Program-made: the position numbers and the translations under genes
The notes under the pieces: generated by a model
The model's database searches: none
The model's input: the letters and a program-made list of their open reading frames with translations, nothing else
Told to the model about the DNA's origin: nothing
Part shown: positions 19,498 through 46,133 of the stretch, in pieces
How the letters are laid out: the number at the start of each line of letters is the position of its first letter
Position numbering within the stretch: position 1 is the stretch's first letter
Origin: an uncultured Muribaculaceae bacterium
GTDB lineage: Bacteria > Bacillota_I > Bacilli_A > RF39 > UBA660
Length of the DNA stretch: 64,000 nucleotides
Assembly: GCA_964384115.1 (NCBI GenBank)
Contig: CAYLJU010000002.1
Location: forward strand, 4,912-68,911
Direction of reading: 5' to 3'

Positions 19498-19573
19498 GCA
19501 CGTATGGTGAAGCGGTTAACACGGCGGATTGTGGTTCCGTTATGCGTGGGTTCGAACCCCACTATGTGCTCCA
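19498..19573 (+). tRNA. tRNA-His (anticodon GUG)
   Basis: A cloverleaf can be folded by eye: 7-bp acceptor, D-arm AGCGGTTA, anticodon stem GCGGA/TCCGT with loop TTGTGGT, T-arm GTGGG-TTCGAAC-CCCAC, encoded CCA. Position -1 is A and the discriminator is U (not the usual G-1/C73). Promoter TTGCAA-17-TAAAAT upstream. Confidence 0.8.
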
Positions 19574-30689: not shown

Positions 30690-30950
30690 TTTATAGTTCT
30701 ATGTTTTGTTATGCTGCTATTAATGAAGGTACTGGGATAACAGTTAATTATATTGCATAAGCAAGTATTCTTGTAGATAGTGTGATTGCAAATAATTCTA
30801 ATGTTGTAAAGGGTGTGAAATGTAAAATTATTATAAAAACTATTGATTTTTGAATAAAAATATATTAATATATGCTTATAAACGTTGATTGGAAGAGTAT
30901 AATTATTATCTATTATAGAAAGTTAATGGTTGATGGAAATTAATATAGAT
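30690..30950 (+). repeat. Copy A of a roughly 230-nt repeated element with two tandem mini-ORFs (30701..30760 and 30782..30853)
   Basis: About 70% identity with 49190..49420 including codon-phased indels; see findings. Confidence 0.5.
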
Positions 30951-31100
30951 GTAGTTAGAAAGACACCAGGAGTGCTTAGGCGAAATTAGTAGAATGAGCC
31001 GGTTAAAACCGTTATATTTAAGAGTGACTATTTTATAGTAATAAAGGTGGTACCGCGGATTAACAGTGATTCGTCCTTTTTTAGGACGACACTGTTTTTT
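30930..31100 (+). promoter_or_regulatory. T-box riboswitch leader (asnS)
   Basis: T-box consensus AAGGTGGTACCGCGG at 31044-31058, terminator hairpin + U-run, then an AGGAGG RBS. Confidence 0.7.
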
Positions 31101-32428: not shown

Positions 32429-32552
32429 TATAGCAGAAATGCTATATTTTTTATGATTATTTTTGTAAATTAAATATAATTATTTATTTTTTGCATATAA
32501 TATTAATGCAAATTAAAATTTGCTATTTTATGTAAATGAAATTGACTTTCAT

Positions 32553-32587
32553 CATAAAATATAGTATATTATTATTGCATTTGAAGA
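32553..32587 (+). promoter_or_regulatory. Sigma-A-type promoter for the repeat RNA (TTGACT-17-TATATT)
   Basis: Read from the sequence; located just downstream of the asnS terminator (32431-32453). Confidence 0.45.
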
Positions 32588-32603
32588 AGTGCTTTAATAA
32601 GAA

Positions 32604-32710
32604 AATGTTTCTCGCTCCCGGATGGTGCGAGTAATAAATTATTCCGGGCGACAATGTTTCTCGCTCTCGGGTGGTGCGAGTAATAAATGATCCCGAGAGA
32701 AAATGTTTTG
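32604..32710 (+). ncRNA. Type III antitoxin-like RNA: 2.2 direct repeats of 49 nt, each an H-type pseudoknot
   Basis: R1 32604-32652, R2 32653-32701, partial R3 32702-32710. Stem A CTCGC/GCGAG is invariant. Stem B is CCCGGA/TCCGGG in R1 and TCTCGGG/CCCGAGA in R2 (compensatory changes). The order A-B-A'-B' gives a pseudoknot. Confidence 0.6.
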
Positions 32711-32743
32711 AAAACTTTATCTTAATGATAGAGTTTTCTTTTT
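32710..32743 (+). terminator. Rho-independent terminator between repeat RNA and toxN-like ORF
   Basis: GAAAACTTTATC-TTAAT-GATAGAGTTTTC followed by TTTTTT. Confidence 0.55.
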
Positions 32744-32771
32744 ACATATGTTATATGGGAGTTGATAATCT

Positions 32772-33263
32772 ATGAAAGTTCAAACAGGATATTTATATCA
32801 TATAAAAGATGAGTTCTTTGATGTAGTAAATGATGATAATTTAATGACTAATCATGAGCGCGGAAAAAAACGTCCGACATATTTTACGATTAAAGATGAA
32901 GATATATTATGGTTTATTCCTTTAAGTAGTAAGGTTGAAAAATATCAAAAAATTATAGATAAAAAAAATAAGAAATATTGTTTTTGAAACACTATTTTTG
33001 TTTGAAAGATATTGGAAGAAGAATCCGTTATATTATTTCAAAATGCTTTTCCTACGTTAGAAAAATATATCGATCATGTTCATACATCTAATGGAGCACC
33101 AGCAAAAGTTGGAACTTTACTTAAAAATGAAATATTGAATAATTTTAAAAATTTATTAAAACTTAAAAGTCGTGGCTATAATGTGTTTTTTACTGATATA
33201 GATAAAATTAAAAAACAAATGCTTAAAGAACTAGATAATTCAAATAAACAAAAAATCTCATAA
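32772..33263 (+). pseudogene. ToxN/AbiQ-like type III toxin gene interrupted by two in-frame TGA codons
   Basis: N-terminus 'MKVQTGYLYHIKDEFFD...KRPTYFTIKDEDILWFIPLSSK' resembles ToxN ('MKFYTISSKYIEYLKEFD...PKAFIGIVLEI..YLAPLTSPK'). ORFs 32772..32987 and 33012..33263 are in the same frame, separated by TGA (32985) and TGA (33003). Confidence 0.5.
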
Positions 33264-33273
33264 TTTTTAATTT

Positions 33274-33300
33274 TTAGCACTTTCTATTGACAAGTGCTAA
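33274..33300 (+). promoter_or_regulatory. CIRCE operator (HrcA binding site) upstream of htpG
   Basis: TTAGCACTT-N9-AAGTGCTAA, a near-perfect match to the CIRCE consensus TTAGCACTC-N9-GAGTGCTAA. Confidence 0.85.
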
Positions 33301-43679: not shown

Positions 43680-44244
43680 TGAAATAAAGAACAAAGCATT
43701 AGTAGATGGTATTCCTATTATGCAGGATGATGGAATTGATTTTTTGATTGATTATATAAAAAAAAATAATGTGAAAGATATTTTGGAAATAGGTACTGCT
43801 GTTGGTTATTCTAGTATAAAAATGGCTTTAATTAGTAATAATATTAATATTGTAACTATTGAAAGAGATGAATTAAGATATAATGAAGCTATTAAAAATA
43901 TAAAAAAAATGAATTTACAAAATAGGATAAATTGTATATATGCTGATGCACTTGAAGTTTCTATAGATGATAGTTTTGATTTAATTTTTATAGATGGTGC
44001 GAAGAGTCAAAATATAAAGTTTTTTGAAAAATATAAAAATTTACTTAAAGAAAATGGTACTATATTAGTTGATAATATTTATTTTCATGGTGTAATATAT
44101 GAAGATGATTCAACTTTATCAAGAAATGTAAGGGGTATAAAAAGGAAAATATTAGATTTTATTGATTATATTAAATCTTTAGATGATTATGAAATTGATA
44201 TTTTATCTAGAGGTGATGGTATAGCAATTATAAAACATAAGTAG
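43672..44244 (+). CDS. SAM-dependent O-methyltransferase (class I, YrrM-like)
   Basis: 'ILEIGTAVGYSS' SAM-binding motif I, 'LIFIDGAKSQ'. Confidence 0.75.
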   Translation: MLNEIKNKALVDGIPIMQDDGIDFLIDYIKKNNVKDILEIGTAVGYSSIKMALISNNINIVTIERDELRYNEAIKNIKKMNLQNRINCIYADALEVSIDDSFDLIFIDGAKSQNIKFFEKYKNLLKENGTILVDNIYFHGVIYEDDSTLSRNVRGIKRKILDFIDYIKSLDDYEIDILSRGDGIAIIKHK

Positions 44245-44252
44245 GTGATAAA

Positions 44253-44972
44253 ATGCTTAAGATTGATGGTATGGACATTAATTACAAAGTAATCGGTGAT
44301 GGTGATTTAGTTGTACTTTTGCATGGTTGGGGTCAAAATATAGAAATGATGCAACCACTTGTAAGAGCATTAAAAAATAAGAAAGTTTTGATTATAGATT
44401 TACCTGGATTTGGAAATAGTGGTGAACCAAATTTTGTTTGGAGTATTGAAGATTATGCTGATTTTGTTAACAAAATTGTTAATAATCTTGGATATAATAA
44501 GTGTTCTATCATTGGTCATTCTTTTGGTGGTAAAATAGGTTTATTTTATGCTAGTAAATATGATGTTGATAAACTTATTTTACTTGCTAGTCCTTATAAA
44601 GTAGAAATAAAAAAAGAAAGTTTAAAATTAAAAGTATTTAAAAAGGTTAAAAAAGTTCCTATTTTAAAGAAAACTGTTGAATTTGCTAAAAAGCATATGG
44701 GATCTACTGATTATCGTAATGCTAGTGGTATTATGAGGGATATTTTAGTTAAACATGTAAATAATGATATAACGGAAAATGTAAAAAAAATTAAATGTCC
44801 TGTACTTATAATTTGGGGCGATAATGATGTTACTGTTGATAAGAGTAATGCATATGAACTAGAATCTTTAATAAAAGATGCAGGAGTGGTTATTTTACCT
44901 GGTACGCATTATGCTTATTTGGAAAATATAAATCAAGTTATTAGGATTATTAAAAATTTTATGGGAGAGTGA
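44253..44972 (+). CDS. Alpha/beta-fold hydrolase
   Basis: 'VLLHGWGQN', nucleophile elbow 'GHSFGG', C-terminal His. Confidence 0.75.
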   Translation: MLKIDGMDINYKVIGDGDLVVLLHGWGQNIEMMQPLVRALKNKKVLIIDLPGFGNSGEPNFVWSIEDYADFVNKIVNNLGYNKCSIIGHSFGGKIGLFYASKYDVDKLILLASPYKVEIKKESLKLKVFKKVKKVPILKKTVEFAKKHMGSTDYRNASGIMRDILVKHVNNDITENVKKIKCPVLIIWGDNDVTVDKSNAYELESLIKDAGVVILPGTHYAYLENINQVIRIIKNFMGE

Positions 44973-44975
44973 GTT

Positions 44976-46133
44976 ATGATTAAAATAGGTGTTATGTTTG
45001 GTGGTACTTCTGTTGAACATGAAGTAAGTATCATTTCTGCTGTTCAAGCAATGCATAATTTGGATAGTGAAAAATATGATATTGTTCCTATTTATATGGG
45101 AAAAGATGGAGTTTGGTATACTGGAAAACAACTAATGGATATTGAATTATATAAAGATATGGATTTATTAAAAAGGTATACTAATAAAGTTGTTTTATAT
45201 AAAAAAGGTAATGAATATGTTTTACAAAGTATAAAAGGATTAAAAAGAATTGTTAATACTGTTGATTTAATATTACCAGTTGTTCATGGTAGTGGTGTTG
45301 AAGATGGAACTTTACAAGGATTTTTAGATACTATTGGTATTCCTTATGTTGGTAGTAATGTTTTAGGTTCTGCTTTAGGACAAGATAAAGTTGTTATGAA
45401 GGAAGTTATGAAAGCTCATGATATACCTGTTGTTCCTTATACTTCTGTATATGATTATGAAATGAATGATTTTGATAAAGTATGTAAGATGGTTAAAAAA
45501 GTAGGGTATCCTGTTATTATAAAACCAGCTAATTTAGGTAGTAGTATTGGTATTACTATTGCGCATACAGAGTCAGAGTTAGAACAGGCTTTAAATGATG
45601 CTTTTGAATATGAGAAAAAATTAGTTGTTGAGAAAAAAATTGAAAATATAATAGAAGTTAATGCTAGTGTTGTTGGTAATTATGAATATTGCGAAGTAAG
45701 TCCACTTGAAGAAGTTATGGGTGAAGATGAGATACTTAGCTATAGGGATAAATATATGGGTTCTTCTAAGGCTAAGGGAATGGTTTCTGCTAGTCGTATT
45801 ATTCCTGCTAGATTAGATGATAATGTAACTGATAAAATTAAAGAATATGCTAAAAGTGTATTTAAAGCTTTAAATTTATCTGGTGTTGCAAGAATTGATT
45901 TTTTAATTGATAAAAAAAATAAAGATATTTATGTTAATGAACCTAATACTTGTCCAGGATCTTTATCTTTCTATTTATGGGATGCTTGTGGAAAAAAGTA
46001 TTCTGAGTTATTAGATGATATTATTAATATAGCAATTAAGGATTATAAAAATAAAGAAAGTAAGATTCGTTCTTTTGATAGCAACATTTTAGCAAGTGCT
46101 GGTATTAAGGGATCTAAAGGTATAAAAAAATAA
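44976..46133 (+). CDS. ddl: D-alanine--D-alanine ligase
   Basis: ATP-grasp; 'GGTSVEHEVSIISA', 'LPVVHGSGVEDGTLQGFLDTIGIPYVGS'. Confidence 0.88.
   Translation: MIKIGVMFGGTSVEHEVSIISAVQAMHNLDSEKYDIVPIYMGKDGVWYTGKQLMDIELYKDMDLLKRYTNKVVLYKKGNEYVLQSIKGLKRIVNTVDLILPVVHGSGVEDGTLQGFLDTIGIPYVGSNVLGSALGQDKVVMKEVMKAHDIPVVPYTSVYDYEMNDFDKVCKMVKKVGYPVIIKPANLGSSIGITIAHTESELEQALNDAFEYEKKLVVEKKIENIIEVNASVVGNYEYCEVSPLEEVMGEDEILSYRDKYMGSSKAKGMVSASRIIPARLDDNVTDKIKEYAKSVFKALNLSGVARIDFLIDKKNKDIYVNEPNTCPGSLSFYLWDACGKKYSELLDDIINIAIKDYKNKESKIRSFDSNILASAGIKGSKGIKK

Follow-up and report, generated by a model that had tools for sequence, protein, structure and literature searches.

A cptN pseudogene with two nonsense codons beside an intact type III antitoxin array

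Introduction

Two short open reading frames (ORFs), 32772..32987 and 33012..33263, lie in a common frame on the forward strand of a 64,000-nucleotide stretch of bacterial DNA (the window), and they raise the question of whether they are one broken toxin gene, two genes in their own right, or one gene that is still translated through its stops. A preliminary description of this DNA had claimed that the frame is split by a TGA, five codons, and a second TGA, which was borne out by translation of 32772-33263. The frame comprises 164 codons. It opens with an ATG at 32772 and runs for 71 sense codons to a TGA at codon 72 (TGA1, 32985-87), which is followed by five sense codons (AAC ACT ATT TTT GTT, encoding N T I F V) and a TGA at codon 78 (TGA2, 33003-05), and then by 85 sense codons and a TAA at 33261-63. 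The first ORF specifies 71 amino acids and the second, which begins with a TTG, specifies 83.

The region is very probably a recent point-mutation pseudogene of the toxin gene cptN within an otherwise intact chromosomal type III toxin-antitoxin module located between aspS and htpG. In the proposed course of events, the host would be a code-11 gut bacterium of the Bacilli or of a Mollicutes-like group with 24.5% G+C, carrying a module made up of a promoter, two 49-nt cptI repeats that form H-type pseudoknots together with part of a third, an intrinsic terminator, and cptN. The toxin would have been inactivated recently by three transversions within 25 nt (GGT to TGT, TGT to TGA, and AGA to TGA), with translation ending after 71 residues. 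On the same haplotype, conversion would have given an array tract of about 50 nt the stem type found in another CptN clade. What is left would be an addiction or defence module in decay, whose RNA antitoxin is an orphan.

A degenerate member of the CptIN family

The 5' half of the frame matches the NCBIfam model NF047359 (CptIN toxin) over model positions 1-67 (E 7e-24), the 3' half matches it over positions 80-150 (E 3e-13), and the joined ORF scores 148.9 bits over positions 1-150 of 150, where the curated cutoff is 90 bits. Because the halves match one family model co-linearly, they are one gene and not a chance juxtaposition. The nearest solved structure to the joined protein is CptN of Eubacterium rectale (PDB 4RMO; phmmer E 1e-15). 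The earlier label "ToxN-like" was right in kind, but the family is CptN, and Pfam ToxN_toxin scores only 20.1 bits with the joined protein, below its cutoff of 25. PADLOC gave no match for the joined protein. The CptIN family calls for an uninterrupted toxin ORF that encodes a toxic endoribonuclease neutralised by its cognate repeat RNA, and this ORF is interrupted at codons 72 and 78. It is a cptN pseudogene, a degenerate member of the family, and should be annotated in this way and not as two hypothetical proteins.

The 5' fragment (codons 1-71 and TGA1, 32772..32987, forward strand) holds the PLSS(K) active-site motif with S52, S53, and K54. The middle piece (32988..33005, forward strand) consists of the five codons N T I F V and TGA2, which arose from AGA (Arg). 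The 3' fragment (codons 79-163 and TAA, 33006..33263, forward strand) holds E82, S85, and H104, which are the counterparts of the adenine-specifying residues of E. rectale CptN in the alignment to 4RMO.

The other parts of the module lie upstream on the same strand. A promoter-like site for the cptI-cptN transcript at 32542..32570 (TTGACT, 17 nt, TATATT) is the best consensus match in the region, at 10 of 12 positions, and belongs to a stretch of about 110 nt which orthologous loci conserve and which locus L084 carries twice, before each of its tandem modules. Two 49-nt cptI repeats of the direct-repeat family D1 follow, the first at 32601..32649 (stems CTCGC/GCGAG and CCCGGA/TCCGGG) and the second at 32650..32698 (stems CTCGC/GCGAG and CTCGGG/CCCGAG), with 86% identity between them. 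The array ends in a partial third repeat, GAAAATGTTTT, at 32699..32709 (forward strand), and this partial unit stands before the terminator in nearly all homologous loci. An intrinsic terminator at 32710..32743, formed by a 12-bp hairpin (32710-32738) and a T run, separates the array from cptN. The terminator scan found two terminators in the region, compared with 0.2 expected from shuffles, and this hairpin is present in the minimum-free-energy fold and conserved in homologues. The ribosome-binding site GGGAG (32757..32761, forward strand) precedes the ATG by 10 nt, and homologues have GGAG at the same place. Nearly all homologous loci with readable upstream sequence share the identical arrangement of array, terminator, and toxin, and the locus is a standard type III toxin-antitoxin layout. 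No second cptIN module or array was found elsewhere in the window. Between the terminator and the ribosome-binding site (32745-32756) lies a TRTGnTATAnT-like motif, here TATGTTATAT, which is found at the same position in most of loci L001-L080. It resembles an extended -10 element and may give cptN a weak promoter of its own, placed after the terminator of the antitoxin.

In the pseudoknot model of the repeats, stem 1 is CTCGC/GCGAG, and stem 2 pairs a hexamer in the stem-1 loop with a hexamer past the A-rich loop. In 65 distinct repeat units, 90.5% of cells were paired under this H-type model, compared with 22-52% in controls with slid partners. Compensatory double changes were found at 8 of the 11 pairs, and the observed covariation score was reached by none of 500 shuffles. 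Both repeats of the window can form all 11 pairs. No match for the region or the repeats was obtained when the locus was scanned against Rfam with E values up to 1, and a scan of the whole window at gathering thresholds returned only a T-box and a tRNA, with no family for the cptI repeats.

Among known systems, the closest is CptIN of E. rectale (4RMO; Rao et al. 2015, PMC4627078), along with the CptIN systems of Coprococcus catus and Ruminococcus torques. The toxins are homologous, the order of tandem repeats, terminator, and toxin gene is the same, and the PLSS motif and Ser85 are conserved. The antitoxin also resembles E. rectale CptI, whose crystal structure shows an H-type pseudoknot in which L1 is a single base and L2 is long and A-rich (PMC4627078). 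The differences are a repeat of 49 nt here versus 45 nt there, Ser-Ser-Lys versus Ser-Ser-Arg, a His at the position of Tyr104, the two stops in the ORF, and a Mollicutes-like gut lineage as host instead of Lachnospiraceae. The module further resembles ToxIN of Pectobacterium atrosepticum and AbiQ/antiQ of Lactococcus, which represent the ToxN family of type III toxin-antitoxin and abortive-infection systems and in which an endoribonuclease toxin processes its own repeat RNA and is inhibited by it, and in which the terminator sets the ratio of toxin to antitoxin. ToxIN belongs to a different family by the sub-threshold Pfam score given above, and ToxI has 5.5 repeats of 36 nt. The quaternary forms also differ, as ToxIN is a heterohexamer and CptIN a heterotetramer (PMC4627078).

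Intact alleles and further copies of the interrupted gene

A protein search with E <= 1e-20 returned 2680 proteins, and the 120 best homologues among the matches listed were all single proteins of 154-196 amino acids. The search of protein collections found an intact 163-amino-acid CptN with 96-97% identity on five contigs from five other samples (L084-L088). Gene calls place aspS upstream and htpG downstream of cptN in L084 and L086. L085 has an ORF at the position of htpG, and L087 and L088 are short contigs in which only a downstream ORF is seen. The intact alleles read AAA TAT GGT TTT TGT AAC ACT ATT TTT GTT AGA AAA, and the window reads AAA TAT TGT TTT TGA AAC ACT ATT TTT GTT TGA AAG. The comparison of orthologous loci that had been proposed earlier thus yielded the intact ORF, with TGT (Cys) and AGA (Arg) at the two stop positions and with three loci visibly syntenic.

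The same positions are informative in the wider family. Among 79 homologues from representative genomes, Cys occupies the TGA1 position in all 79, as it does in 4RMO. At the TGA2 position, 49 homologues have Arg, 18 have Glu, 7 have Asp, and 5 have some other residue. Codon 70, which is TGT (Cys) in the window, is the conserved GGT (Gly) elsewhere, with Gly in 77 of the 79. In a synteny comparison of GTDB representative genomes, an aspS homologue was found nearby only in L004, and the true orthologues came from the protein search. Scans of JGI metagenomes for the locus gave no match.

The exact 71-amino-acid product was found on two other contigs. One (L081, from the Logan assembly of SRR6824180) shows no difference from the window, and both may derive from a single sample. 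The other (L082, ENA ERZ28436069) comes from a different sample and has the same four variants at 32979, 32987, 33003, and 33008, together with private changes, namely two SNPs and a frameshifting 16-nt deletion (AATATATCGATCATGT). The deletion takes away some of the EKYIDHVH motif, where conservation of the protein is highest, which argues that the downstream half is unconstrained and that decay is continuing. NCBI likewise lists the 71- and 83-amino-acid ORFs, from a contig of 76.8 kb.

Probable loss of toxin function

The active site of E. rectale CptN consists of a Ser-Ser-Arg triad together with Asp81, Ser85, and Tyr104 (PMC4627078). By alignment, the window protein has S52-S53-K54, E82, S85, and H104. 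The two serines of the triad and Ser85 are retained, and Lys replaces Arg, Glu replaces Asp, and His replaces Tyr. These substitutions are common to the whole clade and are therefore clade features, not signs of decay. The clade-wide Ser-Ser-Lys (residue 54, 32931-33) and the invariant His (residue 104, 33081-83), which aligns with the adenine-stacking Tyr104 of E. rectale CptN (PMC4627078), give this clade the look of an active-site variant of the CptN family, and not of a decayed one.

S52-S53-K54 lies upstream of both stops, and E82, S85, and H104 lie downstream. A 71-residue product would be missing over half of the fold, together with the residues by which the scissile adenine is positioned. 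The TTG start of the 3' ORF at 33012 has no Shine-Dalgarno sequence upstream. From the truncated product and this unassisted TTG start, we infer that the CptN toxin of the window is dead. The cptI antitoxin side is structurally intact and is probably still transcribed. An inactivation of the toxin by nonsense mutation with retention of the antitoxin array, which was the first reading offered in the preliminary description, is thus supported by the intact TGT/AGA alleles and by the intact array, promoter, and terminator.

In degenerate toxin-antitoxin loci, the toxin is lost first by point mutation and the antitoxin is retained. This order is expected because loss of the antitoxin first is lethal. 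Unlike in other degenerate loci, the orphan antitoxin here is an RNA repeat array, and one probably converted to the type of another clade. No mention of pseudogenised toxins or orphan arrays was found in the type III literature that was consulted.

Outside residues 70-78, cptN is pristine at all other conserved columns. This fits a very recent event, and it would also fit continuing constraint.

Clustered mutations in cptN

Three derived changes mark the interrupted gene: G to T at 32979 (G70C, at a residue that is nearly always Gly), T to A at 32987 (C72*), and A to T at 33003 (R78*). With six outgroup loci for comparison, these are the only unambiguously window-derived changes in codons 1-150. 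All three are transversions, all three are damaging non-synonymous changes, and no derived synonymous change is found elsewhere. The probability of three derived changes falling within 25 nt of a 450-nt gene is about 0.008, and it falls to about 0.0009 when the synonymous change at 33008 is added.

The preliminary description had called two nonsense codons with no frameshift a peculiar way to die. The clustering is indeed significant (P ~0.008), but nonsense changes themselves come easily in a gene of such low G+C content (24.5%). In cptN, a single substitution would turn 67 of the 163 codons into a stop, and nonsense changes make up 5.8% of single-base changes and 8% of transversions. With so many codons near a stop in this AT-rich gene, a second stop after the first is unremarkable. 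The single-stop versions, the version with G70, and the repaired full-length version were sought by exact sequence among about 15 billion proteins, and none was on record.

It is possible that the cluster came from a single complex mutational event, or from rapid successive selection against residual toxin. A search of the 88 fetched loci for a donor of the mutated 33-mer found none with fewer than four mismatches, except the two contigs that carry the same allele. Both nonsense mutations create the heptamer TTTGAAA (32982-32988 and 33000-33006), which is complementary to TTTCAAA at 33036-33042, in the conserved LFQN codons downstream. This could be chance in AT-rich DNA, or it may hint at templated mutation by a quasi-palindrome or template switch, which would leave G70C unexplained.

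Probable conversion of the antitoxin array

The array of the window differs from those of the intact orthologues at eight positions within a probable gene-conversion tract at 32617..32667 on the forward strand. These positions (32617, 32618, 32622, 32640, 32643, 32647, 32666, and 32667) all lie in stem 2 or the adjacent loop, and all eight differences are present in both the window and L082. In repeat 1, the window has CCCGGA/TCCGGG and the intact orthologues have TTACGGG/CCCGAG. In the 5' arm of repeat 2, the window has CTCGGG and the intact orthologues have TACGGG.

At each of the eight positions the window has the base of the TCCCGGA plus TCTCGGG array type, and its repeat 1 agrees in full with repeat 1 of L027, whose toxin belongs to a different CptN clade. 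In the loci surveyed, the TCCCGGA/TCTCGGG type outside the dead-toxin haplotype was found only with other CptN clades, chiefly GRCD/GVCNS. All surveyed loci with a toxin at least 80% identical to that of the window, a set that included intact orthologous contigs with visible arrays, have TTAC or TTCC array types and never the pair of the window. A single conversion tract of about 50-95 nt explains the array far better than eight independent mutations that all preserve pairing.

The state of the array may bear on the death of the toxin. In cross-inhibition tests, CptN was neutralised only by its cognate CptI, with toxins that were 35-44% identical and thus far more distant than the clades compared here (PMC4627078). 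Since neutralisation requires the cognate RNA, a swapped array may neutralise the resident toxin poorly. It is possible, though unproven, that the array swap weakened neutralisation and that selection then favoured cells without a working toxin. The data agree equally well with the opposite order, in which the toxin died first and the array was then free to convert.

The first order can be extended into a fuller scenario, which we put forward tentatively and consider rather unlikely as a whole. The stem swap would have left a poorly neutralised toxin that the cell could survive only by knocking it out, several disruptive hits on the toxin would have been fixed in quick succession, and the orphan array would have been kept as immunity against clade-B CptN. 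The converted array would then serve as an anti-addiction element whenever a clade-B CptN module passes through this hot spot. If true, the toxin would not have been lost by drift alone, and the locus would document in nature how a swapped antitoxin drives the loss of its toxin in a system with an RNA antitoxin. If the link between dead toxin and converted array is causal, it also bears on the turnover of type III modules and on orphan RNA antitoxins as immunity elements.

Other explanations of the two stop codons

UGA is the leakiest stop codon in many Firmicutes. Both stops of cptN are UGA, the reading frame has been kept, and all the other conserved columns are matched by the remainder of the ORF, so that the gene could be thought to remain in use through regulated low-level read-through of both codons by tRNA-Trp, with traces of full-length toxin as a limit on dosage. 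Several observations make this very unlikely. TGA1 replaces the Cys that is invariant in 79 of 79 homologues and in 4RMO, where a Trp would probably be disruptive. Read-through of two serial stops multiplies two small probabilities. The intact alleles, 96-97% identical, use ordinary sense codons at both sites, and neither stop is conserved anywhere. In the sister strain L082, 16 nt of the conserved motif downstream are deleted with a frameshift. The fold of 32985-33050, from the first stop onwards, is no better than that of shuffled controls (z = -0.09). Dose limitation by read-through, which the preliminary description had offered as its most speculative reading, therefore finds no support in the unconserved stops, the invariant Cys, or the L082 deletion.

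An error of sequencing or assembly in a gene that is really intact would also produce this picture, and suspicion is natural in metagenome-derived data when an AT-rich sequence of low complexity has two stops at a distance of 18 nt. The variants are substitutions and not errors of homopolymer length, and the same four are found in L082, which was obtained from a different sample by a different pipeline and has private differences of its own. Independent confirmation of the stops rests on this L082 assembly, with about 1.9x coverage. Because L082 shares the variants and adds changes of its own, the stops are real and inherited and not an artefact of assembly. An artefact, as the preliminary description had also considered, is extremely improbable.

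The idea that the two ORFs are independent small genes, or that they encode a two-piece toxin of separate polypeptides, draws on gene callers, which annotate separate products of 71 and 83 amino acids. It is contradicted by the co-linear match of both ORFs to one CptIN model and by the 120 best homologues among the matches listed, all of them single proteins of 154-196 amino acids. The 83-amino-acid ORF starts with TTG without a Shine-Dalgarno sequence, and its exact product forms a cluster of one. Unrelated small genes at this site, which the earlier description had named as one outcome that would overturn it, and a two-piece toxin are likewise extremely improbable.

TGA might also be a sense codon in this organism (code 4 or 25), or encode selenocysteine at a Cys position. 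The closest relatives are labelled Mycoplasma or Tenericutes MAGs, and TGA1 aligns with Cys, which is the classic Cys/Sec pattern. The window, with a G+C content of 24.5%, was translated in full under code 4. No long housekeeping-type ORF is interrupted by TGA, a codon confined to the ends of genes or to positions past them. TGA terminates 10 of the 51 long code-11 ORFs in the 64 kb, and TGG is used throughout for Trp. One apparent exception, at 44241-46133, consists of two separate genes in the same frame, a 239-amino-acid hydrolase ending in TGA and a 385-amino-acid ORF with its own ATG, which is taken to be a D-Ala-D-Ala ligase. With no other internal TGA and with Trp encoded by TGG, the TGAs of cptN are genuine stops, and this census bears out the earlier statement that the standard code applies, with TGA as a true stop. 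Against selenocysteine, TGA2 aligns with Arg, Glu, or Asp and not with Cys, no SECIS-like hairpin follows the stops, and a search for tRNA-Sec in the window found none, the sole tRNA gene being tRNA-His at 19498-19573. The relatives with 96-97% identity have TGT at the TGA1 site and identical downstream sequence. Recoding of either kind has a negligible probability.

Toxin inactivation and recombination in the CptIN family

The preferred reading, a recently inactivated cptN, has parallels in the family. A single in-frame TAA interrupts 4 of 80 homologues in representative genomes (L001, L012, L059, and L079, at codons 83, 57, 26, and 67, respectively). The 90% cluster of the 71-amino-acid fragment contains many other truncated or frameshifted N-terminal CptN fragments (P0122-P0135). 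Several of these break in a Lys-rich poly-A stretch at codons 60-75, and some are on contigs of up to 174 kb. One of them, P0132 (221 amino acids), is an N-terminal CptN fragment fused to unrelated sequence.

Tandem modules supply a further case. Between aspS and htpG, L084 (2094-3754) and L085 (1-1535) carry a tandem pair of cptIN modules that belong to different clades, and the same promoter block of about 110 nt stands before each of them. The toxin of module 1 in L085 is dead, as codon 9 has changed from TAT to TAG and 2 nt are missing from a poly-A run. Apart from these changes it agrees in full with the L084 copy, and the array of this module is intact. Inactivation of the toxin with retention of the array is a common fate in the CptIN family.

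The 2680 proteins found with E <= 1e-20 belong to a very large and apparently undescribed radiation of CptIN in reduced-genome gut Bacilli, often with several modules per genome and sometimes in tandem. The stem type of the pseudoknot tracks the toxin clade, and the pseudoknot covaries cleanly. This radiation forms a natural data set for the evolution of specificity between a toxin and its RNA antitoxin. The locus of the window by itself is a routine annotation result. Its wider interest is that CptN toxins have been inactivated repeatedly while their arrays persist, and that the dead toxin is here linked to a converted array.

Exchange among toxin copies is also suggested. At 32899-32921 (codons 43-50), the cptN of the window has eight differences from the intact orthologues within 24 nt (ED versus GV, and synonymous changes), and here it is identical to the module-1 toxin of L084. 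The pattern points to patchy gene conversion between neighbouring cptN copies, and comparison with outgroups suggests that the intact clade carries the derived patch. P0004 is a mosaic CptN, in which about 35 N-terminal residues are those of the KINDKGLMINHENGKARP clade (L061, L063, and L072) and the rest is identical to the clade of the window. As read from these sequences, it would be further evidence of recombination among paralogous toxins.

The aspS-htpG gap, a hot spot of module turnover, varies in its junctions as well. The window and L086 have a single module each, with different junctions after the aspS terminator (32429-32500). The window has retained what stands before module 2 in strains with the tandem pair, and L086 has retained the aspS-proximal version. 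This difference suggests that recombination in the duplicated promoter block has led to modules being gained or lost independently.

Upstream of aspS, a T-box leader is found at 30876-31081 (Rfam RF00230, 118.4 bits). Just upstream of htpG, at 33274-33300, lies the motif pair TTAGCACTT-N9-AAGTGCTAA, which overlaps a TTGACA-type -35 element. We take this motif to match the CIRCE consensus, the operator of HrcA.
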